Origin: an uncultured delta proteobacterium
Lineage (GTDB): Bacteria > Desulfobacterota > Binatia > DP-6
NCBI GenBank assembly: GCA_963815115.1
Contig: CAWFFN010000007.1
Coordinates: forward strand, 960,001 to 1,024,000
Direction: 5' to 3'
DNA: 64,000 nucleotides
Positions 33,859-64,000 of the stretch are shown in pieces. The position numbers were made by a program, and so were the translations under genes. The notes beneath the pieces were generated by a model, which worked only from the letters and a program-made list of their open reading frames with translations, ran no database searches and was not told the origin of the DNA. Positions within the stretch are counted from its first letter, which is position 1. The number at the start of each line of letters is the position of its first letter.

Positions 33859-36000
33859 TCAGCCCGCGGCGGCCACCGGCGCGGCGTCGATCGCGAGCCA
33901 GGGCGGGTCGGCCTCGCCCTCGGAGCCGCTGAAGACGAACGTGTCGTCTTCCCGCGAGAAGCCGTTCGACGGCAGGAAGTCGTGGCAGGGCGCATTGTGC
34001 GGCGTCACGACGAGGCGCGTGAGGAGCGCTTCGCCGTTTCGCCTCAGCACGCGCTTGATGTGGTTCATGACGGCGCGCTCGATGCCGTAGCCGAACACGC
34101 GGCAGCTCAGGACGAACACGGGAATCTCCATCCCGCGGGCGGTCCGCCGGGCCACCGCGATGCAGACGGTGCCGTTCGAGCCGAACCGGTCCGACGCGGA
34201 CGCGAGCAGGATCGTCGTCGCCGGGTCCTCGTGCCAGCCCTTGACCTCGGCGAACGTCGTCCGGCTGGCCTGCAGGTTGAACTGGTTGGTGCGGTTGACC
34301 AGCTCCGCGACGCGCTTCAGATCGGCGGCGTCGGCCTCCCGGATCTGGACCCGGAGCTCGAGATTGGCCAGCAACTCCCGCTCGTCCTCGGCCGAGGCGC
34401 GCGTCAGCAGCTCACTTCGCTGATGGTACTGGCGGTACATCTCCGTGCGGTCCGTTCCGCCCGACTCGAGTAGACCGGCCCACAGCTCGAGCCGGCGCCA
34501 CGCCCGCTCGGACGTGGCGTCCAGGGTGACGATGCCGGGGACGCCCTGCGCCACCATCGCCCGCTCGTCCGGGCGATCGTCGATGAAGACGAAATCCTTC
34601 GCCTTCAGGTTGAGGCTCTCGGCGATCCGCTTCGTGTTGCGCACCTTCGAGTCCCAGTTGATCTCGCGGTGGACGAAGTCGTCCTCCCGGAGCAGCCCGC
34701 CGGCGAAGTGGACCTTGTCGGGGTCGTTCTTCGAGTTGACCGCCAGCACCACCCCCTTCCGCTTGAGCGCGACGAGCACGCGCTGCCGGTCCAGGTGGTG
34801 TCGCACCGCACCTTCGCCGATCACGCCATCCCAGAGCGTGTTGTCGAGATCGCACACCACGAGCTTCTTCTTCATCAGGTCGAGCACGACCGCGACGACG
34901 TCCACGTAGACGTCGGCCAGCAGGCGCCCGAGCATCGCCGGATGCTGGTACTCGGCGGCGTGCAGATAGCGGCCGAGGCGGGCCTCGCCGTGGGCACGGA
35001 TCCAGGAGGTCTCGTCGAGGACGTGCAGATGCTCGAAGGTCTCCCGGTTGAGCGTCTCGACCGCGGCCGCCACCTGCCGGTTCAGGACGGCGGCCAGGCG
35101 GCGGCGGCCCGGCGAGGTCGCGATCCGTCGCAGCGTACTGCGCGCGGATCCGTCCGAGCGGATCACCTGGGCCGTGTTGTGCACGATCACCGGACACTCG
35201 AAGCGCTCGGCGAGCAGGGCCAGCGTCGGCATCACCTGCGCGAAGGCTTCGCTCCCCACGGCCCGTGCCTGCCACGGTCCCGACGCGGCGGCGCGAAGAT
35301 GGTGGAGCGGCTCGAGGGAGGGCACGAACTCGTAGGTGAACGGGCTGTAGAACACCGCGTGGTACTGCGCCGGATCGAGTGCACCGATCTCGCGGCGAAG
35401 CTGGGCCGGGTTCTTCGAGGTGGCGAAGGTGGGGACGAGCGTGATGCCTTCCGCCGCCAGCGCCGGCTGGGCGAACGTGACGATGTCGAGATACAGACAG
35501 TCGCCGACCAGGAGGACGCGCGCCTCGCGCTCCCCTTCGGCGAGCACCGCGGCGTAGGCACGCTCCAGGACGTCGTCCAGGGCGGCCTTCTCGGCCGCGT
35601 CGAGCTGGACGTCCAGGACGTCGTGGAAGACCCGCTTCTCGTCCTCGACGACGCGCTTGCGGAACGCGCTGCGCTCGGCGCCCTGGAGGGGGTCGTAGTG
35701 CAGCTGCTTGAGCTTCTCTCCGGTGAAGAGGTGCTCGTAGAGCGCGTCGCCGGTCTCGAATCGGAGCGCCAGGTAGTCGACCAGGGGTCGCTTCTCGGCG
35801 TCCAGCACGAATTCCACCCCCCCTTCGGCCACCATCCTCGTCGTGCGTTCCCACTCCGCCACGACGTCGTAGAGCCGCTCGCTCAGTCGCTCCCGGTTGT
35901 CGGCCAGGGCGCGCGCGAGGCGAGGCCTGGCGACGACGCCTGCGGATCCGCCGCCGCGGCCGTCACGGATCCCTTGTGAGCGACAGGAAAGCGTGGCCAT
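33859..36000 (-). CDS. FkbH-like HAD-IIIC glyceryl-transferase/phosphatase with long N-terminal SGNH-like region
   Basis: VCDLDNTLWDG, NSKN, FIDD, RTNQFN, LSCRV; upstream VLLVGDC...QHP. Confidence 0.88.
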   Translation of the reverse strand: MATLSCRSQGIRDGRGGGSAGVVARPRLARALADNRERLSERLYDVVAEWERTTRMVAEGGVEFVLDAEKRPLVDYLALRFETGDALYEHLFTGEKLKQLHYDPLQGAERSAFRKRVVEDEKRVFHDVLDVQLDAAEKAALDDVLERAYAAVLAEGEREARVLLVGDCLYLDIVTFAQPALAAEGITLVPTFATSKNPAQLRREIGALDPAQYHAVFYSPFTYEFVPSLEPLHHLRAAASGPWQARAVGSEAFAQVMPTLALLAERFECPVIVHNTAQVIRSDGSARSTLRRIATSPGRRRLAAVLNRQVAAAVETLNRETFEHLHVLDETSWIRAHGEARLGRYLHAAEYQHPAMLGRLLADVYVDVVAVVLDLMKKKLVVCDLDNTLWDGVIGEGAVRHHLDRQRVLVALKRKGVVLAVNSKNDPDKVHFAGGLLREDDFVHREINWDSKVRNTKRIAESLNLKAKDFVFIDDRPDERAMVAQGVPGIVTLDATSERAWRRLELWAGLLESGGTDRTEMYRQYHQRSELLTRASAEDERELLANLELRVQIREADAADLKRVAELVNRTNQFNLQASRTTFAEVKGWHEDPATTILLASASDRFGSNGTVCIAVARRTARGMEIPVFVLSCRVFGYGIERAVMNHIKRVLRRNGEALLTRLVVTPHNAPCHDFLPSNGFSREDDTFVFSGSEGEADPPWLAIDAAPVAAAG

Positions 36001-36156
36001 CCGCTGCAACCCTAAAGGACGAACTCTAGCACGGGAATGGGTCGGCGGCCCGCGGGCCCCGCGAGTGCACGTGCCGGGGCCGAGCCTGTATCATCGCCGC
36101 CGGTGTATCCGTCGGTTCGAGACCATGGACCACCCGGCGCGCTCGAGCCGGTACTC

Positions 36157-37377
36157 GTGGCAGCCCAGCCGCGCTGGGGGGCCGTCAGCCGCAACGTCGT
36201 CCTGCTCGGACTCACCAGCCTGCTCACGGACATCTCCTCGGAGTCGTTGAGTGCGGTGCTCCCGCTGTACTTCATGTTCGAGCTCGGCATGACGCCGCTG
36301 CAGTTCGGGCTGCTCGACGGCCTGTACCAGGGCTCCAGCGCGCTCGTCCGGGTCGCCGGCGGCCTCGTGGCGGATGCCGGCAGCCGCTACAAGCCGGTCG
36401 CGCTGGTCGGCTACGCCCTGTCGGCGTTCTGCAAGCTCGGCCTCCTCGTCGTGGGGTCGGCCTGGGCTCCGATCGCCTCCCTGCTGATGATCGACCGGCT
36501 CGGCAAGGGACTCCGGACCGCGCCGCGTGACGCCCTGATCACCCTCAGCAGCGAGCCGTCGCGTCTCGGCGAGGCGTTCGGCGCCCATCGGGCCATGGAC
36601 ACCGTCGGGGCGGTGCTGGGACCCATCCTCGCCGTGCTGGTGCTGGCAGCGGCGCCGGGGGCCTACGACGCGGTGTTCGTCATCAGCTTCGCCGTCGCCC
36701 TGGTCGGTCTCGCGGTCCTCGCCCTCTTCGTCGAGAACCGGAGCGATCCGCATGCCCTCGCGACGCCCGGGCCGCGGCCGCACGTCCGCCTGCGCGCCGC
36801 CTTCGCCAGCCGGCGCTTTCGCGCTCTGGTGGTCGCGGGTGGAATCCTCGGTCTGCTGACCGCCAGCGACGCGCTGATCTACCTCTTGCTGCAACGACGC
36901 GGCGCCGTCCCGATCACGCTCTTTCCCCTGTTGTTCGTGGGCACGGCCGTGGTGTATCTGCTGCTCGCGCTGCCCGTCGGACGTCTGGCGGACCGCTGGG
37001 GGCGCCACCGGGTGTTTCTCGCCGGCCATGGACTGGTGCTCGGCATCTACGTGCTCCTGCTCACCTCCACCCTGCCCGCCACGGGAATCGCGGCGTGCGT
37101 CGGGTTGCTCGGGGCGTACTACGCCGCGACCGACGGCGTCTTGTCGGCGCTCGCCAGCAGCGTGCTCGAGAAGGAACAGCTCACCACCGGCCTGGCGGTC
37201 GTCAGCACCACGACGGCGGTGGCGCGGCTGCTGGCATCGTCGCTCTTCGGCGCCGTGTGGAGCTGGCGGGGACCGACCGATGCTCTCGCGGCCTTCGGCG
37301 GGGGACTCCTCGTCGCCGCCGTCATCGCAGCCGGCCTGCTACGCGTGAGCCGCCCGTGGGTGGCCGCTCCGGAGTGA
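36157..37377 (+). CDS. MFS transporter
   Basis: SLLTDISSE, DRLGKGLRTAPRDALI, AFGAHRAMD, GRLADRWGR; about 12 TM helices. Start uncertain. Confidence 0.9.
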   Translation: MAAQPRWGAVSRNVVLLGLTSLLTDISSESLSAVLPLYFMFELGMTPLQFGLLDGLYQGSSALVRVAGGLVADAGSRYKPVALVGYALSAFCKLGLLVVGSAWAPIASLLMIDRLGKGLRTAPRDALITLSSEPSRLGEAFGAHRAMDTVGAVLGPILAVLVLAAAPGAYDAVFVISFAVALVGLAVLALFVENRSDPHALATPGPRPHVRLRAAFASRRFRALVVAGGILGLLTASDALIYLLLQRRGAVPITLFPLLFVGTAVVYLLLALPVGRLADRWGRHRVFLAGHGLVLGIYVLLLTSTLPATGIAACVGLLGAYYAATDGVLSALASSVLEKEQLTTGLAVVSTTTAVARLLASSLFGAVWSWRGPTDALAAFGGGLLVAAVIAAGLLRVSRPWVAAPE

Positions 37378-38429
37378 CCCTCGTGTCCCGTCGCGTCCTG
37401 CTCTTCGTCGTGATCGCGGTCTGCTGCGTCGGCGGCGCCGGCGCGTACCTCCTGCACGCCGCCCGGCGGTCGGCCCTGCCAGCCGTCCAGCCGCAGCGGT
37501 CGGACGGCGCGGGACGTCCGCTCGCGCCCGGGGAATCCCCGCCGTCCGGTCCGCTGGTCGTCTTCCGACACACCTCGACCGACCAGTACAATGGCGTGCT
37601 GGGCGTCTCGCCGCTCGCCGACCCCAGCGCTCCGCGCTTCGTGGACGGACTCCGCTGCGAGCGCGTGCACATGGCCGCGGGCAAGGGCGTCTGCTTGGTG
37701 GCCAACCGGGGCGTCTTCACCACCTACCGCGCCGTGCTCTTCGACCAGAGCTTCAAACCGCGCGGCGAGCTTCCGCTGGCGGGCGTTCCCAGCCGGGTCC
37801 AGGTCGCGCCCGACGGAAGGCTGGCCGGCACCACCGTGTTCGTCAGCGGTCACTCCTACTCGGACGGCGGCTTCTCGACCCGCACCTCGATCGCCGACCT
37901 CGATACGGGCAAGTGGCTGGTCGAGGATCTGGAGACGTTCACCGTACGCCGCAAGGGCCAGCAGATCCAGTCACCCGACTTCAACTTCTGGGGCGTCACC
38001 TTCCGGTCGGACGGCCGCACCTTCTACGCCACGCTCGGCACGGGCGCCGAGACGTTGCTGGTCAAGGGCGACGTCGACGCGCGCGTCATGGACGTGATCG
38101 AGGAGAGCGTCGAGTGCCCCTCGCTGTCACCCGACGGCCGGCGCGTGGCCTTCAAGCAACGCAGCGGCGGCGTCACCGGTCCGGTGACGTGGCGCCTCTG
38201 GGTGCTCGAGCTCGACACCGGCAAGCGGCATCCGCTCGCGGAGACGCGCAACGTGGACGATCAGGCACAGTGGCTCGACGACGGGCACGTACTCTACGCC
38301 ATCCCCGCCGGAGCCGACCGCCCGACCGTCATGGACGTGTGGGCGGTGCCTGCAGACGGCGCCGGAGAGCCCCGCCTGTTCCTCCCGGGGGCCTATTCCG
38401 CGGCCGTCGAGCGGGCAGCCCGCGGATAG
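37374..38429 (+). CDS. Membrane-anchored TolB-like (PD40) beta-propeller protein
   Basis: GTG overlaps the MFS stop; N-terminal TM helix; CERV, NFWGVTF, VECPSLSPDGRRVAFK, VDDQAQW. Confidence 0.8.
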   Translation: MTLVSRRVLLFVVIAVCCVGGAGAYLLHAARRSALPAVQPQRSDGAGRPLAPGESPPSGPLVVFRHTSTDQYNGVLGVSPLADPSAPRFVDGLRCERVHMAAGKGVCLVANRGVFTTYRAVLFDQSFKPRGELPLAGVPSRVQVAPDGRLAGTTVFVSGHSYSDGGFSTRTSIADLDTGKWLVEDLETFTVRRKGQQIQSPDFNFWGVTFRSDGRTFYATLGTGAETLLVKGDVDARVMDVIEESVECPSLSPDGRRVAFKQRSGGVTGPVTWRLWVLELDTGKRHPLAETRNVDDQAQWLDDGHVLYAIPAGADRPTVMDVWAVPADGAGEPRLFLPGAYSAAVERAARG

Positions 38430-38441
38430 AACCCGGCCTGG

Positions 38442-41400
38442 TCAGGGGCAGACCAGACCGCTGCGCAGGGCCTTCACGTCCGCGACTCTCGCCTGGAGCA
38501 GCTGGGTGAACTCGGCCGCGATCTGCGGCGAGATCTGCTTCCGGCCGTTGCGGGAGCGAACCTTGGCGACCGTCGCCAGCAACCGGTGCCCGGCCGAGCG
38601 TAGTGCCGCGCGCGCCCGCGGAAGCCGGCCGGCGCCACAGAGCGAAGCCGACCGGTGTACGTCGTCCTGCGCCCGATCGATCCGCTTCCCGATTCCGGAG
38701 GCGAGACCCCCGAGCTGCGACGAGGCCTCTTCGGCCCGCCCATGGAGCGCGTCGATGCGGCAGACCACGCCGTCCATGCTGACCGCGGGGTCACATCCCG
38801 GAGGCAGCGTCGTGCTCGTGGTGCTGGTGGTGGGGACGGTCGTCGACGAGGTCGTGGTCGAGGAGGTGGTCGAGGTCGTGGTCGAGCTCGTCGCGGGATT
38901 CGTGCTGGTCGACGTCGTCGGCGGGACGGTCTCCGTCGTGCTGGTCGTCGTCGAGCTGGTCGGCGGCTCGGTCGAGCTGGTCGTCGATTCCGTCGTGCTC
39001 GTCGTGGTGGTCCCGGCCACGATGGTCGTCGTCGTCGAGGCGGTCGTGGTCGAGGTGCCCGGCTCCGTCGTGCTCGTGGTGGTGGTCGACGTAGTCGTGC
39101 TTGCCGGGATGGTCGTCGTGGGACCGTCCGCGAAGACGGCCGTGTACGTGGTGTCGGCGTCGGGGGTGGTGATCGTGTGGAACTGGACGCCGGCATCCGA
39201 CCAGCTGTCGAACGTCAGCGGGCCCTGCGGAGACGGCGCCCCGACGACCCGCTTGACGCCCACCACGCCCGTGAGCTGCGCGGGCGCCGTCACCGGCTGC
39301 CCGTCGAGGTTGAGCTGCAGGCCCGGCGGGCTGCTGTCGAGGCGGAGCGTCGCGAGACGCGGCTGGATGGACACCGAGGCGACCCCGGTGAGTCCGAAGG
39401 AGTCGGTGGCGCGCAGGACGATCTCGTAGCTGACGTTCGGAGAGGTCTCGCCCGAGTCGTTCGTCTCGAACTGGAGTGACGGCCCGGTCTGCCCGCTCAG
39501 GAAAGGGTGGTAGTGCGTGTCATGGTGGAATCGCACCTCCCACTGGAGAGCCGAATCGGACACGGCGCCGTCGTGGGCGTCGCTCGCGCTTCCGGCAACC
39601 TGGATGGTCTCCCCGCCCGAGAACAACGAGCCGTCGACGGGCTGGCTGATCGTCACGACGGGCGGCGTCCCGACGGTGATGGGCAGTCGTACGCTGTCGG
39701 AACCCTGCGTGTCGCTCACCGTGAGGGTGGCGGTGTAGAGCCCCTGGGCCGGGTAGCCGTGCAAGGGTGCCGCGTCTTCCGACGTCGGGGTGCCGTCGCC
39801 GAAGTCCCACAGGACCTGCAGCGGGTCGTCGTCGGCGGCAAACACCACGTCGACGAAGTAGTTCAACGAACGATAGGAGTCCGAGGGAAAGGTGCTGGTG
39901 CTGCCGTAGCCGAAGACGCCGTTGTTGCCCGATACTCCCGTCGCCAGCGCGTGCAGCGGTGGAGCATCCACTCCCTGATTCGCGAAGTAGTCGAGCTCGC
40001 CGCTGAAGTGTCCGTTCGGGCTGAAGTACGACGCCACGTAGACGGTGTTCGGCACGATCGCCACCGGCGTCGCGAAGCTCACCTCTTGCCAGCCGGAATC
40101 GCTCTCCGCGGTGAAGGTCGCCGTCGCCAGCAGGGTGCCGGCGCTCGACCACAGGTTCCCGACGTGCGTGCCCGTGTTGGCCGGGCCCTTGTAGAAGCGG
40201 ATGCCCGTCACGAATCCCGGCACATCGGACCTGAACTTGACCCCGAGCTCCACCGCGTCGGTGTCGCCGCCGTCCACGATCGCCGGCACCGTGGTCGCGG
40301 GCCAGATCGACTCGAGGCCGCTGATGCTCGGAACGTGGGACGATCCGGAGCTGGAGAACTGCACCGCGAGCGGCGGCGCGCCCTGCGACGGCGTCGCCGT
40401 GGCGCGCGCCACCGGCGGCGTGTTCGACCCGGTCGTCGCGATGCGGTGCACCTCGCCCGCGATGACGTCGGGGTAGTAGAGCGACCCGTCCGGCCCCGCG
40501 ATCAGGTCGGTGTTGCCCTGCAGGTTGGTGGCAAAGGGGATCGCCGGCCCGGAGGCGGTGACGCCGTCGGCGGCGAGGACCACCCGGCGGATGAAGCCCA
40601 CGACGTAGTCCCCGAAGAAGTAGCTCTGCTGGTAGTCTCCCGGGAAGTTCGTTTCGGAGCCGAAGTCGCCGCCGGTGATGGCGGCGCTGCCCTTGGGAAA
40701 ACCGACGTGACTGTACGTGAAGATGGGCTGAGTGAACTGCGGGAAGGTCGCGGAATTGAAGGTACCCTCGGTCGTGGGCCAGCCGTAGTTCTTCTTCTCC
40801 AGGACCCAGTCGACCTCTTCCCAGCTGTTCTCTCCCACGTCGCCGCAGAAGAGCCGGCCGTCGGGATGGAACCTGCAGCGCCAGGGGTTGCGGAAGCCGA
40901 GTGCCCACACCTCGGGTCGCGCGTCGAAGAGACCGACGAACGGGTTGTCGAAAGGCACGGTACCGTCGGAGTTCAGGCGGAGGATCTTGCCGTTGAGCGA
41001 GTCCGGGTCCTGCGCCTTCGTGTGGATCGCTCCGCCGTCTCCGACGGCGACGTAGAGCTTGCCGTCCTGCGGCCCGAAGCCGATCCAGCCGCCGTTGTGG
41101 TTGCCGGCGTCCGAGTCGATGTCGTCGAGGAGCACGACGTGGCTGGTCGGGTCCGCGACGTCCGGATTGCCCTGGTATCCGGCGGTCACGCGAGCGACGC
41201 GGTTCTTGGCGGTCTGGCACTGAGGCGTGCCGGGAACCTTGCACACCGAGTAGTAGAGGTAGACGAAGGAGTTGAGCGCGAAGTCCGGATCGAAGGCAAC
41301 GCCGAGCAGCCCTCGCTCGAGGAAGTCGTCGAAGGTCACCGACGGCTCGACCAGCTGCCTGACGTCGAGGAACGGCGTGCCGAGAAGCACCCCGTCCTTC

Positions 41401-41618: not shown

Positions 41619-41671
41619 GGAGTCCTATAAGGAGCGGGCCGAAGGCATGGCTCGTGCTTCCCCCCCTGCTA

Positions 41672-41699
41672 TGACGCACGCCTGGACCCGATTGCGTCA
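41672..41699. promoter_or_regulatory. Palindromic candidate operator upstream of the GSDH gene
   Basis: TGACGCA-N14-TGCGTCA. Confidence 0.35.
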
Positions 41700-42940: not shown

Positions 42941-43134
42941 CACGTCGACGGGATCCGCACCAGCCTGGGCCCTCTATCGTGGACCCGGGATTCTCGCCAG
43001 CCTGTCGACGAGGACGATCGGCCACGCATGACCTCGACCCGCCGGCAGCGCGTTGCGCGCACCCCGGTCGTGCCGTAGATGCAGGGAGCCACGGCTCCGC
43101 GCGCGCCGGGCGCAGCCTCGATCCGCAGGAGACG

Positions 43135-56487: not shown

Positions 56488-56503
56488 AGCAAGGCGTGTG
56501 CCG
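56488..56503 (-). promoter_or_regulatory. Sigma54 (-24/-12) promoter of the giant protein gene
   Basis: CGGCAC-ACGCC-TTGCT on the minus strand with an AT-rich tract immediately upstream. Confidence 0.68.
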
Positions 56504-56853
56504 GCAAAAGCCTTATTGAATGGCGGCGTTGCCAGTGCATACGCGCATGATTGATCCGCAGCACCGCGTTTCCGCCAGGGATGGGCCCCGCCACCGTCAC
56601 GGCAGGGTTGGCAGCGGACACCGCCACTGCCATAGACAGCCCCTCACCGGGGACGGTATGAGGGCCCCGCTCCGCGGCTCGCATGCCGGGGAGCACGTGG
56701 CGCAATCACCCTCACCCGAGTGCTCGAACCCTCGATTTCCTCGCTCGGTCCCAGCCAGCCGAGCGACCGCGCGGCCCGGCGAATCGCCCCGGCAGCGATG
56801 GCCGCCGACCAGGCGGGGCCGGGGCGGGCCCCGGTCGCGGGGGGCACCTGACG

Positions 56854-58347
56854 ATGTCGCGCACCACCGCTCGCGCCCTCGTCGCCGGAGCCTTCGCGCT
56901 CTACGTCCTGCTTCACCTCGTCACCGTCGCGCGCTCGCACATTCCCTGGTTCGACGACACGTTCTTCGCCAGCATCGGCGAGACGCTGCGAAGGACCGGC
57001 GAGTTCAGGCTGACCGTCTCGCCGCTCTGGTTCCCCAAGCCCGTCTACCTCTACGGTCCCATCTACTTCCTCCTGGTCGCCGGTTCGTTCGCCACGCTCG
57101 GCTTCGGCGTGCTGCAGTACCGCCTGACCGGCCTCGTCGCCGCCTTCGTCCTGCTCGCCGTCGCCTACCGCATTCTCCAGCGCGAGGGCGTCGAGCGACG
57201 CATCGCCCTCGGGGCGTGCGTGCTCATGGCGCTGGACCCGATCCTCCTGGAGATCCTCCGCATCGGCCGGATGGACCTCCTGGCGCTCCTCTTCGTCCTG
57301 CTCGCCTACCTGCTGTTGGTGGACGCGAGACAGACCACGGGACGCGCGGCCCTGCTGTATGCCGCCGGCTCGGGTGCCCTCGCGTCCCTCGCGGTCCTGA
57401 CGACCCCGCGACCGGGCTACGCCCTCGTCCCGCTGGGGCTCATCCTGCTACATCGGTGCTGGACCGGCCCGATCGGGTCGCGCGTGGCCCAGCTGCTCGC
57501 CTGGGGGGCTGGCTTCGTCCCGCTGTGCATCGTCTGGCTGGTCTACGCTTTCGGCAGCCTGCCGGGACTCCTCGCCTACTTCTCGGAATTCGCCGACACC
57601 TATGCGGGTACGGGCCTCGCGACCGTCTCGATCCAGAAGCCGATTCTCGCGATCCTGCTCGTCCTGACGCTGCTCACGCTGTTCAGGGATCCGCGCCGCC
57701 TGCTGAACGAGCTCCCGGTCTTCCTCGGACTGGGGATCGTGCTCTTCTTCCTGTTCGTCAAGAACAAGGGAACCTTCGGAGGCGGCTACGCGATCCTCCT
57801 CATCCCGTTCGAGTACATGGCGCTGGGCTGGCTGATCGCGAATTGCCCTCCCCTCTCGGGCCCACGGTCCCGTCGAGCCGTCCAGGCCACCTCGTTCGTC
57901 CTGCTGCTCCTGCTGAACGGCGGCGCGTTCCTGGCGATCGTCGCATCGGACTTTCTGCTCTGGCCCGCTCTCGACCCGAGCGCGGCCCAGAGCCTGATCG
58001 TCGAGAAGATCCCGCCCGGATCGAAGGTGGTGGGCGACGACAAGTTCTACTTTCTCGTGACCCGCGCCGGTTCCGACTTCCAGTACCTCGAGCGGGGCGG
58101 GACGGTCGCCGAACGGGTGAGCTATCACAAGGACACGTTCGGCTTCGACTACGTCGTCACGGCCCTGGACGAGAGCTCGGAGATCCTGAGCGCCTACCTC
58201 GCCGCCACGAATCTCGTGAAGGTGGGCACCATCGATCACCCGAGCGTCAGCGCGCTGACCAGGTACCCGCTGTTCGCCCGCGGCAAGTTCATGCTCTGGG
58301 TCTTCACCACCAACTACGGCGGGACGCTCTACAAGCGGGTCCGTTGA
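56854..58347 (+). CDS. ArnT/PMT-like (GT83/GT39) GT-C glycosyltransferase
   Basis: PWFDD after TM1, YGPIY, RIGRMD, TTPRP; polytopic with a C-terminal periplasmic domain. Confidence 0.8.
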   Translation: MSRTTARALVAGAFALYVLLHLVTVARSHIPWFDDTFFASIGETLRRTGEFRLTVSPLWFPKPVYLYGPIYFLLVAGSFATLGFGVLQYRLTGLVAAFVLLAVAYRILQREGVERRIALGACVLMALDPILLEILRIGRMDLLALLFVLLAYLLLVDARQTTGRAALLYAAGSGALASLAVLTTPRPGYALVPLGLILLHRCWTGPIGSRVAQLLAWGAGFVPLCIVWLVYAFGSLPGLLAYFSEFADTYAGTGLATVSIQKPILAILLVLTLLTLFRDPRRLLNELPVFLGLGIVLFFLFVKNKGTFGGGYAILLIPFEYMALGWLIANCPPLSGPRSRRAVQATSFVLLLLLNGGAFLAIVASDFLLWPALDPSAAQSLIVEKIPPGSKVVGDDKFYFLVTRAGSDFQYLERGGTVAERVSYHKDTFGFDYVVTALDESSEILSAYLAATNLVKVGTIDHPSVSALTRYPLFARGKFMLWVFTTNYGGTLYKRVR

Positions 58348-58360
58348 CCGCGTCCGACCG

Positions 58361-59596
58361 TCACAGCCTGGACGGAGTCAGCCCTCGCCGAGCTCCGAGT
58401 CCGATGCCCGCCGTTCCCCGCCTGAGGCTCATGGCCATGAGCCAGCCCACGGCCACGCACAGCGCGAGGACGCGAAGATGGAGCAGGAGCGGACTGACAT
58501 AGGGTTCGAGCAGGCTGTTCGGCAGGGTCACGATCAGCATCAGGCCGAGCGCCAGCACCGATGCAGCGGCTCGTTCGTGCACGTGGCGCCAGAACGCCGG
58601 GATGAGGGGGATCAGGGCGGCGATGTCGTAGCCGTGGGCGAAGCCGAAGAGCAGCGACATGCCGACCAGGATGGGCAGCACGTCGTCGTCGACGACGCTG
58701 GCCCGCGACCACCAGAACCACCCGAGGATGAGCAACGCCAGCGGCAGGAGGACCGGTGCGTCGACTCCCGCCACGAAGAGCAGGTTGCGCAGCCCGAAGA
58801 CCATTCGCGATCCGAGGGTGTTGTACGAACCGGCGCTGTATCGCCACGCCGCAGCGGACCAGTCCGACATCAGCTGAACGGGGCCGCTGATGAGGAGCGG
58901 CACCGCGGCCAGCGCCGCGACGCCCAGCGCGGCGGCCGCGAGCACCCGCCACCGGCGTTCGAGGACCAGCCACAGCATCGGGAGCGCACTCACCTGCGGC
59001 TTGATGGTGGCGATGGCGAGGAGCAAACCGCCGATCAGCCATCGATCGCGCCGGGCCAGGCGCCAGCCCAGCATGAGCGCCAGGATCACGATGAGCGTCG
59101 TCTGGCCGGCCCAGATGACGAACGCGGTGGACGGGTTGCCGAGGACGAGGGCGGGGATCGCCCACCACGCCGCATCCCCGAGTCCTGCCCGGCTGCGGCG
59201 TCCCGGATCGCGGGCGCATCGCAGGCTGAGGGCGGCGAGCCCCAGGGCCGCGGCGAGGTTGAGGCCGGTCATGAGCGCCCGGGCACCGACCGGCGACCAC
59301 GCCGCGAGCAGCATGCATAGGGGCGCGATCTGCGGCGGGTAGGCGAAGTCGTAGCGCGCGACCGCTTCCGCGAGCCACGGGTCGGCGGGATGCACCGACC
59401 CCGGCACGTAGGCGTTGAGGCCCTCGCGCCAGTAGAGCCCCGCCAGGTACAGGAAGCGCATATCCAGATTGGTCTGCGCCAGTCCGCCGTGTCCCGCCCC
59501 GAAGAGGCCGAGGGCGACCGTCACGCCGACGGCGCACAGGAGGATCACCGACCCGAAGCGCGGGTCATGCATGCGCGAATGTCGAACCGACGTCAT
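58361..59596 (-). CDS. GT87/DUF2029 family GT-C glycosyltransferase (paralog 2)
   Basis: LDMRFL...GLNAY, FAYPP, WAGQ, TIKPQ, HGYD. Confidence 0.83.
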   Translation of the reverse strand: MTSVRHSRMHDPRFGSVILLCAVGVTVALGLFGAGHGGLAQTNLDMRFLYLAGLYWREGLNAYVPGSVHPADPWLAEAVARYDFAYPPQIAPLCMLLAAWSPVGARALMTGLNLAAALGLAALSLRCARDPGRRSRAGLGDAAWWAIPALVLGNPSTAFVIWAGQTTLIVILALMLGWRLARRDRWLIGGLLLAIATIKPQVSALPMLWLVLERRWRVLAAAALGVAALAAVPLLISGPVQLMSDWSAAAWRYSAGSYNTLGSRMVFGLRNLLFVAGVDAPVLLPLALLILGWFWWSRASVVDDDVLPILVGMSLLFGFAHGYDIAALIPLIPAFWRHVHERAAASVLALGLMLIVTLPNSLLEPYVSPLLLHLRVLALCVAVGWLMAMSLRRGTAGIGLGARRGLTPSRL

Positions 59597-59670
59597 GCTC
59601 CTCGAACGGCACCCTGACGCTCGCGCTGCTGCCGGCGAGCGCGCAGGGATCACGCTGAGCGTGGTGCTCT

Positions 59671-60630
59671 TCAGGCCGACCAGGCAGCGGGAGCGGTCTG
59701 CAACACGTGCCCGGCGGCGGTCTTCGCCTCGATGATGTACCGCGGCCGGCGTCGGGACTCGTCGAGAGCGCGCCACAGGTACTCGCCGAGCACGCCCATC
59801 ATCACCATCTGGATGCCACCCACCAGCAGGACCACGACCATCAACGACGACCAGCCCTGCACGGGAGCGCCGCGCAGGGAGTTGAGGATCACCAGGGCCG
59901 CGTAGACGAAGCCCGCGCAGGCCACGGCGAACCCGACGTACGACATGAACCGGATCGGCACGTAGCTGAACGACGTGACGGAATCGACGACGAGCTTCAG
60001 CTTCTTCTTGAGGCTCCACCCCGACCTGCCGTGCAGACGGGCTCCTTTGTCGTAGGTGATGGTGGCCTGCCGGAATCCCATCCAGGTGATGAGGGCGAGG
60101 ATGCTGGCGTTGCTCTCGCTGAACCGGGAGAAGGCTTCGACCACGTCGCGGTCGAGGAGGAAGAAGTCGGCACCCGTGGCCGGCATCTCCTTCATGTCGA
60201 CCACGCTTCGCATCAGCCAGTAGTACAGGCGCGAGAACCCGACCGTCGTCGCCTTCTCGCCCTCACGAAGAGCCCGGGCCGCCCACACGACCTTGACGCC
60301 CTCCTTCCATTGCTCGAGCAGCTGCGGGATCACCTCGGGGGGATCCTGCAGGTCCGCGGCCAGGGCCGTCACGCAGTCCCCCCGCGCCTCGTGCAGGCCG
60401 CACGTCACCGCGGCGTGCGCGCCGAAGTTCCTGGCGAAGCGCAGCCCGCGCACCCGCCGGTCGCGCTCGGCGAGCCGGGTGACGACGGCGAACGTCGCGT
60501 CCTGGGAATGGTCGTCCACCACGACCCACTCCCAGTCGAGCCCGAGGGACTCCATGGTCGCGCGGATGCGCTCGTAGAGAACGGGCAGGTTCGCCGCTTC
60601 GTTGTACGCCGGAGTGACGATGGAGATCAT
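59671..60630 (-). CDS. GT2 polyprenyl-phosphate glycosyltransferase (GtrB/ArnC-like)
   Basis: SIVTPAYNE, VDDHS.D, RNFG, ADLQDPP, two C-terminal TM helices, GEYLWR...RRP.Y. Confidence 0.92.
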   Translation of the reverse strand: MISIVTPAYNEAANLPVLYERIRATMESLGLDWEWVVVDDHSQDATFAVVTRLAERDRRVRGLRFARNFGAHAAVTCGLHEARGDCVTALAADLQDPPEVIPQLLEQWKEGVKVVWAARALREGEKATTVGFSRLYYWLMRSVVDMKEMPATGADFFLLDRDVVEAFSRFSESNASILALITWMGFRQATITYDKGARLHGRSGWSLKKKLKLVVDSVTSFSYVPIRFMSYVGFAVACAGFVYAALVILNSLRGAPVQGWSSLMVVVLLVGGIQMVMMGVLGEYLWRALDESRRRPRYIIEAKTAAGHVLQTAPAAWSA

Positions 60631-60646
60631 GGGCACCTCGCTCGAT

Positions 60647-61789
60647 TCAGCGCGCGCCACAGGCGCGCCGCAACCCGTCCGCGACCTGCTCCTGCTCCTG
60701 CCGCGTCATCTGCCCATACAGCGGCAGGATGATGCAATGGTCCTGGGCCGCCTCCGAGTGCGGCAGCGCGTGCCGCGCCGCGCTGCCCTCGTAGCTCGGC
60801 TCGCGATGGCTGCACATGACGCCGCGCCGGGTCGCGATGCCCTGGTCGAGCATCCGCTGCATGACCTCGCGCTGATCGCACCGAGCGGGCAGCCGCACGC
60901 AGAAGCTCTGCCAGTTGCTCCGGGCCCAGTCGGGCTCTCGCGGCTGGATCAGACCGGGCACGTCGGCCAGCAGCGCCCGGTAGCGCTCGACCAGCGCCCG
61001 GCGGACGGAGACCACCTCGGGCAGCCGCTTCAGCTGCTCCCGGCCGACGGCCGCCTGGATGTCGGTCATGCGGTAGTTGTATCCGAGCACCGGGTAGGAC
61101 TCGAAGATGACCGTGTTGGCGCCGTGTCGTACCGTGTCGGGGACGCTCATCCCGTGCTGTCGCAGCAGCCTGCAGCGCGCATCCCAGTCCGCGTTGCCGG
61201 TGGTGATCATGCCGCCATCACCCGTGCTCATCACCTTGCGGGGGTGAAACGAGAAGCAGGCGATGTCGCCGTGCGGGCGGCCGATCTTCTCCCACCGGCC
61301 GCTCCAGCAGATCTCGCTGCCGCTGGCGCACGCCGCATCCTCGATCACGGCGAGTCCGGCCCGACGCGCCACCGGCAGGATCGCCGCCATGTCGCAGGGC
61401 ATCCCCATCTGGTGCACGCACAGGACGGCGCGCGTGCGATCCGTCAGCGCGCCCTCGAGCTGCGTCGGGTCGATGTTGAAGGTGTCGGGCTCCACATCGA
61501 CGAAGATCGGCGTCGCACCGCAGTAGCGGATGGCGTTCGCCGTGGCGATGTAGGAGTGGCTCACCGTGACGACGTCGTCGCCGGGACCCACCCCCGCGGC
61601 CAGGAGCGCCAGGTGCAGCGCCGTGGTACAGCTCGACACCGCACACGCGTGCTCGGCGCCCACGAAGGCCGCGAACTCGCGCTCGAAGGCGGCCACCTCC
61701 GGTCCCTGCGTGATCCAGCCGCTCAGGATGGCGCGGCCGGCCGCCGCGACCTCCCGCTCGTCCATCACGGGTTTGATGATCGGGATCAT
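60647..61789 (-). CDS. DegT/DnrJ/EryC1/StrS aminotransferase
   Basis: SSCTTALH, IEDAAC, FSFHPRK, GDGG, GYNYRM. Confidence 0.95.
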   Translation of the reverse strand: MIPIIKPVMDEREVAAAGRAILSGWITQGPEVAAFEREFAAFVGAEHACAVSSCTTALHLALLAAGVGPGDDVVTVSHSYIATANAIRYCGATPIFVDVEPDTFNIDPTQLEGALTDRTRAVLCVHQMGMPCDMAAILPVARRAGLAVIEDAACASGSEICWSGRWEKIGRPHGDIACFSFHPRKVMSTGDGGMITTGNADWDARCRLLRQHGMSVPDTVRHGANTVIFESYPVLGYNYRMTDIQAAVGREQLKRLPEVVSVRRALVERYRALLADVPGLIQPREPDWARSNWQSFCVRLPARCDQREVMQRMLDQGIATRRGVMCSHREPSYEGSAARHALPHSEAAQDHCIILPLYGQMTRQEQEQVADGLRRACGAR

Positions 61790-62757
61790 GCGGCGACGGT
61801 CGCGTTCGCGCGCCACCACTCGACGAGTCGACCGAGCCCCTCGCGGAGATCGACCTGGGCGCGGAAGCCCAGCAGGCGCTCGGCCTTCGCGGTGTCGGCC
61901 AGGCGCCGGGGCACCGGGTTGACCTTGCGCTCCGGACCGTACTCCGGCCGCAGGGTGGAACTCATCGTCGCGAGGAGCGCGTCCGCGAGCTGGTTGAGAC
62001 TCGTCTCCCGGCCGCTGCCGACGTTGAACACGTCGTCGGTCACGTCCGACTGCAACGCCAGGATGTTCGCGCGCGCCACGTCCTCGATGTAGACGAAGTC
62101 CATCGTCTGGGTGCCGTCGCCGAGGATGAGGGGCGGCTGTCCGGCGGCGATACGCTCCATCCACCGGATCAGCACCTCGGTGTACTTGCCGTGGATGTCC
62201 ATGCGCGGCCCGTAGACGTTGAAGTACCGCAAGGCGACGTAGGGCAGCCCGTACATGTCGTTGAACGAGCGCAGGAGCCCTTCGAGCATGATCTTGCTCG
62301 CGCCGTACCACGTCCGGTTGTTGTAGGGGTGGTGGTCCTCACGGGTCGGGAAGGTATCGGCCATCCCGTAGATCGACGCGGAGGACGCGGTCACGACCTT
62401 CTTGACGCCTGCGGCCTGCGCCGCCTCGACGACGTTGAAGGTGCCGTCACACATCACCTCGAGCGCCGCGCGCGGCTCGGCCGCACAGGCGGTGATCCGC
62501 AGCGTCGCCATGTGGATGACCGCGTCGATTCCCTCCATGACCTGGTGAACGGTGCCGACGTCCCGGATGTCGCCGCGCACCAGCGTCACGCGCCCATCCG
62601 CCAGCGCGTGCTCCACGTTGCCGAGGCTCCCGCGCTCGAGGTTGTCCACGATGACGATGCGGCCGGGGTCGTGGTCGTGCAGCAGCAGGTCGATGGTCGT
62701 CGATCCGACGAGGCCGCAGCCGCCGGTGACCAGGATGTTCGCGCCGTCGAGCTTCAT
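61786..62757 (-). CDS. NAD-dependent epimerase/dehydratase
   Basis: TGGCGLVG, SSASIYG, YGASK, LRYFNVYGP. Confidence 0.95.
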   Translation of the reverse strand: MKLDGANILVTGGCGLVGSTTIDLLLHDHDPGRIVIVDNLERGSLGNVEHALADGRVTLVRGDIRDVGTVHQVMEGIDAVIHMATLRITACAAEPRAALEVMCDGTFNVVEAAQAAGVKKVVTASSASIYGMADTFPTREDHHPYNNRTWYGASKIMLEGLLRSFNDMYGLPYVALRYFNVYGPRMDIHGKYTEVLIRWMERIAAGQPPLILGDGTQTMDFVYIEDVARANILALQSDVTDDVFNVGSGRETSLNQLADALLATMSSTLRPEYGPERKVNPVPRRLADTAKAERLLGFRAQVDLREGLGRLVEWWRANATVAA

Positions 62758-62776
62758 GTCGAGGTTTTTCCGCCTT

Positions 62777-63427
62777 TCAGAGCTGTCGTGCCGGATTGCC
62801 AGCCACTCGCGCGCCGGCCGGGACGTCCCGGATCACGCTGGAGCCCATGCCGACCAGAGCGCGATCGCCGAGACACAGGCCGTTCATGATGCTCGCGCCG
62901 CTGCCGATGTAGCAGTTCTCTCCCACCGTGGTGTTGCCGGCGATGGTGACGTTCGAGCCGATCAGGGTCCAGTCGCGCACCACCACGTCGTGATGGATGA
63001 CCGTGTTGGGCAGGATGCAGACGTGGTCGCCGATGACCGCGTTGCTGGTGATCGCGACCCCGGCCATGACGAGGACGTTCTTCCCCACCACGGCGAGCGA
63101 CGAGATGCGGGCGCTGGGATGCACGACGCGGGCGAAGCGATCGGCGCCGAGCCCGAGCCCGTCGATGATCTCGCGCCGGACCTGGTAGGACGTCGCGCTG
63201 CCGGGGACCGCCAGCACCGCCGCATCGGCCCGCTTCGCGAGCACGCCGCGATCGAAGACCGGATGGCCATGGGCATTCCCGGCCCGCTTCTCCGGCGTGT
63301 CGTCCACGAATCCCACGCAGCGGTACGCGTTCCCCAGGCAGTCGAGGGCCTCGAGGCCGTTGCCGTTGCAGGGGAAGATCAGCAGTGGCGACGCGTCCGG
63401 CACGTTCCTGGTCTCGCTTCGGGTCAT
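62777..63427 (-). CDS. NeuD/PglD-like sugar acetyltransferase
   Basis: GFVDD, VHPSA, IHHD catalytic His, GNPAR. Confidence 0.9.
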   Translation of the reverse strand: MTRSETRNVPDASPLLIFPCNGNGLEALDCLGNAYRCVGFVDDTPEKRAGNAHGHPVFDRGVLAKRADAAVLAVPGSATSYQVRREIIDGLGLGADRFARVVHPSARISSLAVVGKNVLVMAGVAITSNAVIGDHVCILPNTVIHHDVVVRDWTLIGSNVTIAGNTTVGENCYIGSGASIMNGLCLGDRALVGMGSSVIRDVPAGARVAGNPARQL

Positions 63428-63437
63428 CCCGGGCCGA

Positions 63438-64000
63438 TCACGCGGCCCGGGCGAGGCGGCGCACGGCGCCGCACACCGTCTCGCATTGCGCCGCGGTCAG
63501 CTCGGGGAACATGGGCAGGGACAGGACCTCCCGCGCCGCGTGCTCGGAGGCGGGAAACCGGCCGGCGCGATAGCCCAGGTCGGCGAAGGCGGGCTGGAGA
63601 TGCACCGGGATCGGGTAGTGAACGCCGGTGTGGATGCCGTCGCGCTGGAGCGCGTCCTGCCACTCCTGCCGGCTACCGGTGCGAACGGCATAGATGTGGT
63701 AGACGTGGCGCATGGCGGTCGCCGGCGGCAGCGTCTCCACGCCGCCGTCGATCAGCAGCTCGTCGTAGCGCGCGGCGGCGGCACGGCGGGCCTCCGTCCA
63801 GTCTTCCAGGTGGCGCAGCTTCACGCGCAGCACCGCGCCCTGGATCCCCTCCATGCGATAGTTGTAGCCCTTCAGCACGTGCTGGTACTTCTTCTCGGCG
63901 CCCCAGTCGCGCAGCATCCGGAGCGTGCGCGTGTACTCGGGGCTATCCGTCACCACGATCCCGCCCTCGCCGTACGCGCCGAGGTTCTTGCCGGGATAGA
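63438..64000 (-). CDS. Second DegT family aminotransferase (3' part; 5' end beyond window)
   Basis: YPGKNLGAYGEGG, GYNYRM, HYPIPVH, LSLPMFPEL. Confidence 0.93.
   Translation of the reverse strand, partial: YPGKNLGAYGEGGIVVTDSPEYTRTLRMLRDWGAEKKYQHVLKGYNYRMEGIQGAVLRVKLRHLEDWTEARRAAAARYDELLIDGGVETLPPATAMRHVYHIYAVRTGSRQEWQDALQRDGIHTGVHYPIPVHLQPAFADLGYRAGRFPASEHAAREVLSLPMFPELTAAQCETVCGAVRRLARAA

Follow-up and report, generated by a model that had tools for sequence, protein, structure and literature searches.

A Wzx/Wzy-type surface-polysaccharide island combining secreted DUF4082 proteins, an amino-sugar cassette and a putative FkbH-ACP acyl block

The WbpB, WbpE, WbpD and WbpI enzymes lead to a UDP-2,3-diacetamido sugar, and the PglF/E/D and LegB/C/H enzymes lead to a 2,4-diacetamido-6-deoxy sugar. 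Here, we compare these and other described systems with a gene island of ~69 kb (C7:993,859 to ~1,063,000) from an uncultured, high-GC, Gram-negative soil bacterium. The left 30 kb of the island occupy positions 33859-64000 of a 64,000-nucleotide stretch of DNA (the window; C7:960001-1024000 of the 6.9-Mb assembly G000, with a G+C content of ~70%), and the island reaches ~39 kb beyond the window end, with most of its genes on the minus strand. An initial annotation of the window had proposed one undescribed glycosylation system in which secreted DUF4082 proteins are joined to amino-sugar synthesis, lipid-carrier loading and GT-C glycosyltransferases. Our analysis confirmed the observation and partly supported the interpretation: the sugar chemistry and the lipid route are plausible and the link between DUF4082 proteins and glycan genes is real, but the locus is not a self-contained conserved unit. 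What had been called a system is a lineage-specific mosaic within an ordinary Wzx/Wzy island, and the ties of its FkbH and GT-C parts to DUF4082 do not extend elsewhere. With moderate confidence, we favor the reading that a Wzx/Wzy core, an amino-sugar cassette, polyprenyl-phosphate branches and an acyl block are combined here with secreted DUF4082 enzymes that would edit the polymer.

Which described systems does the island resemble? The WbpB/WbpE/WbpD/WbpI set finds counterparts in a GFO/IDH/MocA oxidoreductase similar to UDP-GlcNAc 3-dehydrogenase (E 1e-46), in the aminotransferase DegT_b and the hexapeptide transferase Hexapep_c (both at the family level), and in a WecB equivalog; the island differs in having no UDP-GlcNAc 6-dehydrogenase (WbpA). 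The PglF/E/D or LegB/C/H set is paralleled by an SDR protein, the aminotransferase DegT_a and a NeuD/PglB/VioB-type acetyltransferase. Like the Arn/Gtr side-branch systems, the island brings together in one locus a DegT protein, a GtrB/ArnC-type GT2, an ArnE/F-like protein, a de-N-acylase and GT-C enzymes, but its matches fall below the equivalog cut-offs, its deacylase is of another family, and its five GT-C genes belong to two families. The streptococcal Pgf and GtrB/PgtC2 systems (PMC12041528, PMC5856776) share with it a PgfS-like GT2 (GT2_a) and, close by, GT-C enzymes, an SDR of the epimerase type and a secreted protein rich in Thr/Ser. They differ in that here the host is Gram-negative and many stalked proteins are encoded genome-wide.

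For the acyl block, two described systems come into consideration. In the FkbH/OzmB route of polyketide and tetronate synthesis, a glyceryl unit is loaded onto an acyl carrier protein (ACP); work on bafilomycin and tetronates connects FkbH with glyceryl units and bisphosphoglycerate. The island resembles this route in that an FkbH protein with the HAD DxDxT motif scores over the curated cut-off and has a small ACP beside it, but ketosynthase, FkbI/FkbK-type dehydrogenases and a FabH-like enzyme are not among the 25 open reading frames (ORFs) scanned here, and the partners of FkbH are sugar-modifying enzymes. The other system, likened by its published description, is the Campylobacter jejuni flagellin-glycan locus, which in strain NCTC 11168 holds the fkbH-domain gene cj1302 (PMC7099621). 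C. jejuni pseudaminic acid bears a 5-(2,3-di-O-methylglyceroyl)amino group, and the authors who describe it hypothesize that an acetamido group is cleaved first and that a methylglyceroyl group then replaces it (PMC3068675). This is the only precedent that we found in the literature for FkbH in glycans. It combines an O-methylated glyceroyl amide with an FkbH-domain gene in a glycan locus; the window, for its part, unites FkbH2, an ACP, an N-acyltransferase, an O-methyltransferase and a de-N-acetylase. There, however, a nonulosonic acid is carried on flagellin, whereas here a hexosamine cassette lies in a Wzx/Wzy polymer locus, and the available portions of the C. jejuni reports mention neither a glyceroyl role for cj1302 nor a VOC partner.

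The giant secreted protein of the island (2,689 amino acids [aa]) calls for one more comparison. The large subunit of the Paracoccus N,N-dimethylformamidase (DMFase; 6lvb; PMC7686228) has the residues Y440, H519 and E521, the equivalents of which are kept in the giant. The two are only distantly similar (E 5e-6), DMFA2_C in the giant forms part of a secreted multidomain protein, and the substrate surely differs from that of DMFase.

Raw ORF lists are rich in spurious frames at ~70% G+C; we chose genes by third-position G+C (GC3) and searched the chosen ORFs against Pfam and NCBIfam. For positions 33859-64000, this set comprised 25 GC3-supported or long ORFs. Every gene that the initial annotation had listed was present (Table 1), and, as it had stated, no ketosynthase, Wzy/Wzz or Wzm/Wzt was found among these 25 ORFs. 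Additional to it are an MFS transporter, a membrane-anchored protein (37374-38429) and the DMFA2_C domain of the giant.

The initial annotation had also supposed that the island continues past the window end and that polymerase or export genes may lie there, and this proved right. On the same strand follow the remainder of DegT_b (full length, L001:441-1736; window-equivalent end, 64736) and then a GFO/IDH/MocA oxidoreductase (GFO_a), whose best named model is UDP-GlcNAc 3-dehydrogenase (E 1e-46; 159.6 bits versus a cut-off of 450). Also past the window end are a small ArnE/F-like membrane protein (ArnF, 35.9 bits with a cut-off of 99; ArnE, 29.5 bits; TMEM234, 29.9 bits with a cut-off of 30.1), a third hexapeptide transferase (Hexapep_c), a WecB-type 2-epimerase (WecB, 457 bits versus a cut-off of 210), an AT3-SGNH O-acyltransferase, the GT-C genes GT87_c and PMT2_b, a DPM1/ArnC-like GT2_b, and GT4 and GT2 genes. 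These are accompanied by a Wzy_C protein (E 5.3e-17), a candidate polymerase, ligase or O-oligosaccharyltransferase, and by a MurJ/Wzx-like flippase (MurJ-family match, E 1.5e-10, in a partial ORF). Farther to the right lie another GFO gene, a WecG/TagA transferase, a third DegT, the initiating phosphoglycosyl transferase (Bac_transf, E 7.9e-67, L002:13215-14612), a NusG-like factor, and the export genes Wzz/GNVR (GNVR, E 3.8e-10; Wzz, E 2.3e-5) and Wza (Poly_export, E 7.7e-17). Because the initiating transferase and the Wzx-like, Wzy_C, Wzz/GNVR and Wza genes stand at its far end, the locus is a Wzx/Wzy-type (Wzx/Wzy/Wza) surface-polysaccharide island; as a whole, it does not represent a novel type of system. 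The host is marked as Gram-negative by a sigma-54 activator and Wza; an actinobacterial cell-wall locus, as suggested by the 70% G+C and the GT87 genes, was rejected on account of the sigma-54 activator, Wza and Wzz/GNVR. All four DUF4082 domains and all three GT87 matches of the 6.9-Mb genome fall inside the island, and PMT_2 is frequent in the genome (22 matches, 2 of them inside). The clustering of these genes is greater than chance expectation.

The initial annotation had opposed its proposal to an ordinary O-antigen locus into which the secreted proteins had inserted by chance. The flanking wzx-, wzy_C-, wzz- and wza-type genes speak against a separate system; are the DUF4082 genes then chance insertions? 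With an alignment of 14 DUF4082 domains as the query, we collected 73 distinct DUF4082 loci from the best 80 of at least 652 matches and searched them with the island proteins (tblastn, E ≤ 1e-6, and more loosely at E ≤ 1e-3) and with profile hidden Markov models. The loci came from Acidobacteriota, Nitrospira, Verrucomicrobiota, Planctomycetota, Geobacter/Desulfobulbales, Methylobacter, Burkholderiales, Actinomycetes, Chloroflexia and cyanobacteria. DegT genes occurred in 31 of the 73 loci, SDR genes in 25, hexapeptide transferases in 24, GFO in 18, GT2 in 10, GT4 in 9 and Bac_transf in 6, and clustering of all ORFs in these loci returned the same recurrent families. Across the 24 loci listed, the identities to the island proteins (DegT_a, 47-71%; DegT_b, 44-76%; GFO_a, mostly 42-74%; Hexapep_c, 43-73%; SDR, mostly 52-80%) make the cassette matches look orthologue-like. 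The usual order is GFO, Hexapep_c, DegT_b, a hexapeptide transferase, SDR, DegT_a and Hexapep_b, on the same strand and abutting the giant. Five of these genomes, of 2.9-5.9 Mb, carried ~3-7 strong DegT genes each, which corresponds to ~2% of random 20-kb windows, versus the 42% observed beside DUF4082. DegT was found in 24 of 43 DUF4082 loci with DMFA2_C versus 7 of 30 without it. In seven sampled loci, the giant lies among sugar genes together with at least one of Bac_transf, Wzx, GT2, GT4, Wzy_C, a Wzc-like protein and Wza. DUF4082 giants are therefore regular members of polysaccharide loci in many phyla and not chance insertions. Several recurrent clusters of "unknown" ORFs in the 73 loci turned out to be antisense ORFs of DegT genes.

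The remainder of the proposed linkage failed outside the lineage. The initial annotation had joined DUF4082 to FkbH-ACP-VOC and GT-C genes, and none of FkbH, GT87, PMT_2, ACP, VOC or the deacetylase was found in any of the 73 loci at E ≤ 1e-6; TylF was likewise found in 0 of 73. Relaxing tblastn to E ≤ 1e-3 added only one weak ArnE/F-like match, and the profile models found FkbH in 0, GT87 in 0 and PMT_2 in 1 of the loci (E 3.3e-4). The window giants carry GSDH propellers, and the FkbH-ACP-VOC and GT-C modules that accompany them are wanting in the 73 other loci save for the one weak PMT_2. As a separate observation, the cassette proteins of a locus in a Methylobacter metagenome-assembled genome (MAG; L035, 11582-19255) are 69-80% identical to those of the source genome, with Hexapep_b at 47%; identity this high between phyla suggests that cassette and giant were transferred horizontally together.

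What might the DUF4082 proteins do? The giant consists of a signal-like hydrophobic segment, a GSDH propeller, a PKD domain, Cys-rich repeats, three DUF4082 domains (503.8 bits in three stretches), DMFA2_C and Big_2/He_PIG/Big_7 domains. Its DMFA2_C match (344.4 bits, E 1.3e-102) covers 1-370 of 374, and Y1726, H1803 and E1805 align with DMFase (PDB 6lvb) Y440, H519 and E521. Among 45 DMFA2_C copies from 42 loci, the Y440 equivalent is kept in 37 and the H519 and E521 equivalents in 44 each. In DMFase, Y440 and E521 are iron ligands and H519 lies nearby (PMC7686228). DUF4082 itself is 55-67% identical across phyla, is scarcely named in the literature, and has 3,925 protein matches in one length band, very often with DMFA2_C and Ig-like domains. 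Its predicted structure (pLDDT 78.5) is a PHR-like beta-sandwich with a TM score of ~0.55 (Foldseek versus PDB). We also tried to read its function from the fold, and the PDB matches (PHR, capsid, weak carbohydrate-binding module [CBM]) named none. In some relatives, DUF4082 is combined with further domains of catalytic type; from their precomputed Pfam accessions, we take these to be galactose/glyoxal-oxidase-type and phosphatase-type domains. On the grounds of the DMFA2_C match, the kept metal-site residues, the DegT adjacency, and the DUF4082 fold and partner domains, we propose that the giant is a secreted enzyme that probably edits an amino-sugar polymer by removing N-acyl groups, with DUF4082 as a docking module.

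The smaller DUF4082 protein (1058 aa) carries a Thr/Ser stalk of ~120 residues followed by a C-terminal, Cys-bracketed helical domain. The stalk is not specific to this locus: at least 22 GC3-supported ORFs genome-wide have 36-60 Ser/Thr in a 60-residue window (for example, C7:952378-953874, C7:317642-320035 and C9:1220319-1222262), and poly-Thr stalks are a general trait of the secreted proteins of this organism. The helical domain (38445-38849, minus strand; ~120 aa, ending in CP) recurs at 27-32% identity after Thr-rich linkers at C5:1450665-1451060, C5:800716-801072 and C9:723390-723749, and it may be a lineage-specific anchoring or sorting domain.

In the acyl block, the HAD DxDxT residues D220, D222 and T224 of FkbH2 are invariant in five sequences, as is C493 within an SCRV motif; C493 is a candidate for the catalytic cysteine of the acyl-enzyme intermediate. 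The HAD part is similar to BF1531 of Bacteroides fragilis (E 1e-42), itself unstudied, and the ACP-like ORF of 80 aa abuts FkbH2. The solved structures nearest to Hexapep_a are QdtC and the lipopolysaccharide-biosynthesis acetyltransferase 3mqg, presumably both sugar 3-N-acetyltransferases, and the VOC protein weakly resembles methylmalonyl-CoA epimerase and glyoxalase I. Among 80 metagenome loci with FkbH2-like genes (30-44% identity), ACP was found in 42, a hexapeptide transferase in 15, VOC in 14, DegT in 12, GT4 in 10, GT2 in 10, and a WbmS-like deacetylase and TylF in 1 each; many of these contigs are only 2-5 kb, and the counts are lower bounds taken without a control set. The FkbH-ACP(-VOC-hexapeptide) set is thus a recurrent companion of glycan genes and not of polyketide synthases. 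The N-acylated, O-methylated amino sugar of the initial annotation is therefore plausible in outline, with the O-methylation possible: FkbH2, ACP, VOC, the QdtC/WlbB-like Hexapep_a, TylF and a de-N-acetylase lie side by side. With its deacetylase, FkbH, ACP, N-acyltransferase and O-methyltransferase, the window has every component that such an exchange of acyl groups would need, and the likely role of the FkbH-ACP-VOC-hexapeptide set is to place an acyl group of the glycerate type on an amino sugar.

The polyprenyl-phosphate route proposed for the locus is plausible as well, as GT2_a matches both PgfS and ArnC over their full length and GT-C genes are adjacent. The scores (PgfS, 213.6 bits with a cut-off of 500; ArnC, 169.8 bits with a cut-off of 529; both near-whole models) indicate membership at the family level. 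DegT_a similarly matches ArnB at 3e-79, below the equivalog cut-off. Of the five GT-C genes, three are GT87 and two are PMT_2; they are arranged in two GT87/PMT_2/GT2 triads (PMT2_a/GT87_b/GT2_a and GT87_c/PMT2_b/GT2_b), with GT87_a standing apart. As the triads lie within a polymer locus, we would rank the polymer first as the likely acceptor, protein second and lipid A third.

How stable is this gene content? We compared 41 related genomes, in which G000 is the source genome, G001, G002 and G003 belong to the same genus, and G010 belongs to another genus. FkbH2-like matches were found in 9 of the 41, the only close ones being in G001 (89%) and G010 (69%); those of G024 and G006 (~40% identity) stand in unrelated contexts. 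G001 is collinear with the whole island. G010 is rearranged and keeps a DMFA2_C-DUF4082 protein, the deacetylase, Hexapep_a, ACP, FkbH2, VOC, a giant, DegT_a, GT2_a, the MFS transporter, the membrane protein, the small DUF4082 protein and amino-sugar genes; GT87_a, GT87_b, TylF, PMT2_a and FkbH1 were not found within the 63 kb seen. In G002, a giant lies beside two PMT_2 genes at a contig end. The island of G003 runs PMT2_a-like, Hexapep_c, ArnE/F-like, GFO, DegT, Hexapep_b, SDR, DegT_a, GT2_a and giants, and it lacks FkbH2, ACP, VOC, Hexapep_a, TylF, the deacetylase, GT87_a, GT87_b and the small DUF4082 gene. The notion of a self-contained system is not supported by this comparison within one genus. 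The 5 of 41 genomes with PMT2_a-like genes (E ≤ 1e-20) are also the 5 with DUF4082; they represent two genera and are kin. GT87 occurs in 28 of 41. In G001 (L013-L016, C12:50001-130000), FkbH1, GT87_a, VOC, DegT_a, SDR, Hexapep_b, DegT_b and the giant each appear as 2-3 adjacent tblastn pieces; these split orthologues look like assembly frameshifts rather than pseudogenes.

Taken together, the favored reading divides the island into four modules and the secreted proteins. The polymer core, which lies outside the window, comprises the initiating transferase, WecG/TagA, GT4, GT2, the MurJ/Wzx-like flippase, Wzy_C, Wzz/GNVR, Wza and a NusG-like antiterminator. A cassette of two branches (SDR, DegT_a and Hexapep_b; GFO 3-dehydrogenase, DegT_b and Hexapep_c, followed by the WecB-type 2-epimerase) would turn UDP-GlcNAc into di- or tri-N-acylated hexoses. 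UDP-GlcNAc 6-dehydrogenase is missing from the island (4 UDPG_MGDP_dh_N matches in the genome, none in C7:993,859-1,063,000), and the GFO branch therefore probably acts on UDP-GlcNAc itself. In the third module, GT2_a or GT2_b would load a sugar onto the lipid carrier, the ArnE/F-like protein would flip it, and a PMT_2 or GT87 GT-C enzyme would add it in the periplasm, most likely as side-branches of the polymer. In the fourth, lineage-specific module, FkbH2 would load glycerate on ACP, VOC may epimerize the glyceryl-ACP in a putative 2-epimerase role, the WbmS-like deacetylase would free an amine, Hexapep_a would transfer the glyceroyl group, and TylF would O-methylate it, to give an (O-methyl)glyceroyl-amide sugar like that of the C. 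jejuni flagellin glycan. The two DUF4082 proteins would then be secreted enzymes and not passengers, with DUF4082 modules docking on the amino-sugar polymer and the iron-amidase-like DMFA2_C of the giant and the GSDH propellers editing the exported polymer by de-N-acylation or oxidation.

Several observations weigh against this reading. Every chemical step is derived from family membership, and many matches fall below equivalog cut-offs. The nearest solved relatives of Hexapep_a are named acetyltransferases, and an acyl-ACP donor for it is a guess from adjacency. Without a UDP-GlcNAc 6-dehydrogenase in the island, the classical WbpA-dependent uronic-acid route is incomplete. The match of the giant DMFA2_C to DMFase itself is weak (E 5e-6), and the candidate for a Y399 equivalent, although Y in 44 of 45 copies, lies in an ambiguous alignment. 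The best fold matches of DUF4082 are modest and are to PHR domains and capsid proteins, which are not proven carbohydrate binders, and CBM matches are weak. The GT-C and FkbH modules are tied to DUF4082 in one genus only and partly in a second, and these are kin and not independent; in G010, moreover, the PMT2_a-like gene is on another contig than the main DUF4082 cluster. Across phyla, 42 of the 73 DUF4082 loci have no DegT within 10 kb, so that the link is frequent and not universal, and the 73 loci are those most like the window domains, which is a biased sample. The five genomes behind the DegT baseline were drawn from DegT-positive loci, and the ~2% is therefore, if anything, high.

Four other explanations have to be set beside the favored one. 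One potential explanation is protein O-glycosylation, in which GT2_a would make a polyprenyl-phosphate sugar and PMT_2/GT87 enzymes would modify Ser/Thr of the co-encoded proteins, chiefly the stalk of the 1058-aa protein. PgfS is the best NCBIfam match of GT2_a (E 3.6e-63, full length), PMT/PMT_2 is the protein-mannosyltransferase family, the Thr/Ser stalk of ~120 residues lies 100 bp from GT87_a, and streptococcal GtrB-type enzymes with PgtC2 or Pgf glycosylate extracytoplasmic Ser/Thr-rich regions (PMC12041528). However, at least 22 comparable stalked ORFs are scattered genome-wide, a stalk of this kind is absent from the giant, GT2_a falls well short of the PgfS equivalog cut-off (213.6 versus 500 bits), GT-C genes occur in only 1 of the 73 DUF4082 loci of other phyla, and G003 keeps its giants without GT87_a, GT87_b and the stalked protein; we consider this explanation unlikely. 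The sugar could also end up on lipid A or the lipopolysaccharide core as a free-amine charge modification, made by DegT_a, an N-acyltransferase, GT2_a, the WbmS-like protein, the ArnE/F-like protein and PMT2_a, with the polymer genes as mere neighbors. The Arn, Bordetella Lgm and mycobacterial PpgS/Rv3779 systems share the same logic, and the component list here mirrors ArnB/ArnA-N/ArnC/ArnD/ArnE-F/ArnT: DegT_a resembles ArnB (3e-79), GT2_a resembles ArnC (7.3e-50), the small membrane protein resembles ArnF/ArnE, PMT_2 is the ArnT fold family, and a de-N-acylase is present. All of these matches, however, are below equivalog cut-offs, an ArnA-like formyltransferase/decarboxylase is lacking, and the only deacylase found is the WbmS-like PF22537 protein and not of the ArnD/LgmC family. 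ArnD and LgmC belong to a Pfam family other than PF22537. A dedicated ArnT may lie elsewhere among the 22 PMT_2 matches of the genome, and in other phyla it is the giant that the DegT_a and SDR orthologues accompany, with no ArnC/ArnT-type gene found beside them. We rate charge modification of this kind a shade less likely than protein glycosylation.

Could the DUF4082 proteins instead be purely structural, as an adhesin, a matrix scaffold or an S-layer-like coat held non-covalently on the amino-sugar polymer through DUF4082, much as SLH domains bind secondary cell-wall polymers, and with no catalysis? DUF4082 is repeated, in alternation with Ig-like domains and Cys-rich repeats, the predicted fold of DUF4082 is a beta-sandwich, and the genes are conserved beside polymer sugar genes. 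Against a structural role, the DMFA2_C metal-site residues are kept in 37-44 of 45 copies, which is unexpected for a purely structural domain, and relatives carry other enzyme-type domains by their Pfam accessions; we find it as improbable as protein glycosylation. That the locus has no functional unity at all, being a recombination hot spot that gathers unrelated glycan and secreted-protein genes by chance, would be in keeping with the differing contents of the same-genus genomes (G000/G001 versus G002 and G003) and with the rearrangement in G010. The adjacency of giant and cassette across phyla, far above the DegT baseline, the position of all DUF4082 and GT87 genes of the genome within the island, and the recurrence of the FkbH-ACP-VOC-hexapeptide set elsewhere already disfavor it, to the point that we give it hardly any credence.

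The favored mosaic with secreted polymer-editing enzymes also admits a bolder form, which we offer as tentative and think rather doubtful as a whole. The giants might represent a new extracellular polysaccharide-editing class, with a 2-Tyr-1-carboxylate iron amidase (a new carbohydrate-esterase-type family) stripping N-acyl groups from an exported poly-N-acyl amino-sugar polymer and DUF4082, as a new carbohydrate-binding module family, directing it there. In this lineage, FkbH-ACP-VOC would supply the polymer with an (O-methyl)glyceroyl amide, such that the choice of removable acyl groups would control surface charge. The island contains two widespread, unstudied modules, the DUF4082/DMFA2_C giants and the FkbH-ACP glycerate-type acyl set, and these orphans are worth experiments. 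If the reading is true, DUF4082, which thousands of soil and water bacteria carry, would acquire its first functional context in the editing of an amino-sugar polymer by an iron amidase after export. The FkbH-ACP-VOC-hexapeptide set would likewise be a general route to glycerate-type N-acyl sugars in glycans, beyond polyketides, and would open the genetics behind the di-O-methylglyceroyl sugars on Campylobacter flagellin to testing. Within a single genus, the island occurs both with and without the acyl block, which amounts to a natural experiment.

Table 1. Features of the island within the window (window coordinates)
Feature	Positions	Strand	Match or remark
FkbH1, 716 aa	33859-36009	-	TIGR01686 207.4 bits (cut-off 146.65); left island edge
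MFS transporter	36037-37377	+	PF07690 E 7.5e-31
Membrane-anchored protein, possible beta-propeller, 351 aa	37374-38429	+	GC3 0.91; PD40 E 7e-4, below cut-off
Secreted GSDH beta-propeller-DUF4082-PKD protein, 1058 aa	38442-41618	-	Pfam; signal peptide
GT87_a, GT-C fold	41723-42943	-	PF09594 73.1 bits (cut-off 25)
WbmS-like polysaccharide deacetylase	42979-43905	+	PF22537 E 1.1e-28; PDB 3hft WbmS E 6.9e-11
TylF-family O-methyltransferase	43925-~44899 (start uncertain)	-	PF05711 E 3.2e-17; 90% identical orthologue in G001
Hexapep_a, hexapeptide (LbH) N-acyltransferase	44935-45684	-	PF00132; QdtC 8e-18, 3mqg 3e-16
ACP-like carrier, 80 aa	45708-45950	-	WDSL serine motif; ACP models 29.3 bits versus cut-off 71
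FkbH2, 577 aa	45950-47683	-	TIGR01686 276.2 bits (cut-off 146.65); PDB 3slr BF1531 E 1e-42
VOC (glyoxalase-fold) protein	47668-48072	-	PF13669 E 1.8e-12
Giant secreted protein, 2,689 aa	48225-56294 (ORF to 56705)	-	Likely start ATG 56294
Sigma-54-like -24/-12 element, one mismatch	56489-56503	-	~195 nt upstream of giant start, in divergent giant/PMT2_a region
PMT2_a, ArnT/PMT-like GT-C	56683-58347	+	PF13231 27.3 bits (cut-off 26.1); PF02366 25.6; divergent from giant
GT87_b, GT-C	58361-59653	-	PF09594 64.8 bits (cut-off 25); start GTG 59653 or ATG 59596
GT2_a, GtrB/ArnC/PgfS-like	59671-60660	-	PgfS 3.6e-63, ArnC 7.3e-50, below equivalog cut-offs
DegT_a, sugar aminotransferase	60647-61780	-	PF01041 E 4e-110
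Epim_SDR, SDR epimerase/4,6-dehydratase	61786-62757	-	PF01370 E 3e-56
Hexapep_b, NeuD/PglB/VioB-type N-acetyltransferase	62777-63427	-	TIGR03570 158.7 bits versus cut-off 160.8
DegT_b, 3' part	63438-64000	-	Pfam; gene runs to window-equivalent 64736

The boundaries of the island are marked by unrelated genes. To the left of FkbH1 lie housekeeping genes (RecR, DnaX, transketolase and an M19 dipeptidase); FkbH1, which has an unassigned N-terminal region of ~380 aa besides its FkbH/HAD-IIIC domain, adjoins the M19 dipeptidase gene in G000, G001 and G003. To the right of Wza lie a WD40 protein, an enoyl-CoA hydratase, an L,D-transpeptidase and a cyclic-glucan-synthase-like giant. The last of these (L185:8713-17394, plus strand, corresponding to C7:1071713-1080394) is a GH94/glucoamylase-type protein of 2,894 aa, similar to cyclic beta-1,2-glucan synthase; it adjoins a histidine kinase and a response regulator, 9 kb beyond the island Wza.

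Two further ORFs inside the island merit mention. One of 444 aa (L001:12172-13503, minus strand) is without a Pfam or NCBIfam match and is kept in same-genus genomes; the other, of 752 aa (L002:8980-11235, minus strand), is without a Pfam match and is also conserved within the genus, and its frame is doubtful by its atypical G+C content at the codon positions. Orthologues of the 351-aa membrane-anchored protein are present in G001 and G010, and three of the 73 DUF4082 loci from other phyla encode relatives of 44-45% identity (L040, L050:2672-3694 and L051:5774-6634). In L040, an Opitutaceae MAG, this gene directly follows a relative of the MFS transporter that is 49% identical (both within L040:11657-13985). 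A non-coding frame that overlaps the 351-aa gene (37403-38426, plus strand) is open for 342 codons with a first-position G+C of 0.91; such G+C content thus readily gives false ORFs.

We also searched the window for sigma-54 promoters, and the four consensus matches, versus 3.28 expected, were not significant; only the position of the element at 56489-56503 is suggestive. A perfect -24/-12 consensus at window positions 10632-10646 (plus strand) stands just 5' of a 79-aa ORF (10668-10907) that is followed by a sigma-54 activator gene (10960-12264; Sigma54_activat, E 7.6e-66), and the three may form an autoregulated unit. In two Acidobacteria loci (L080 and L092), the amino-sugar cassette likewise is flanked by genes for sigma-54 activators.

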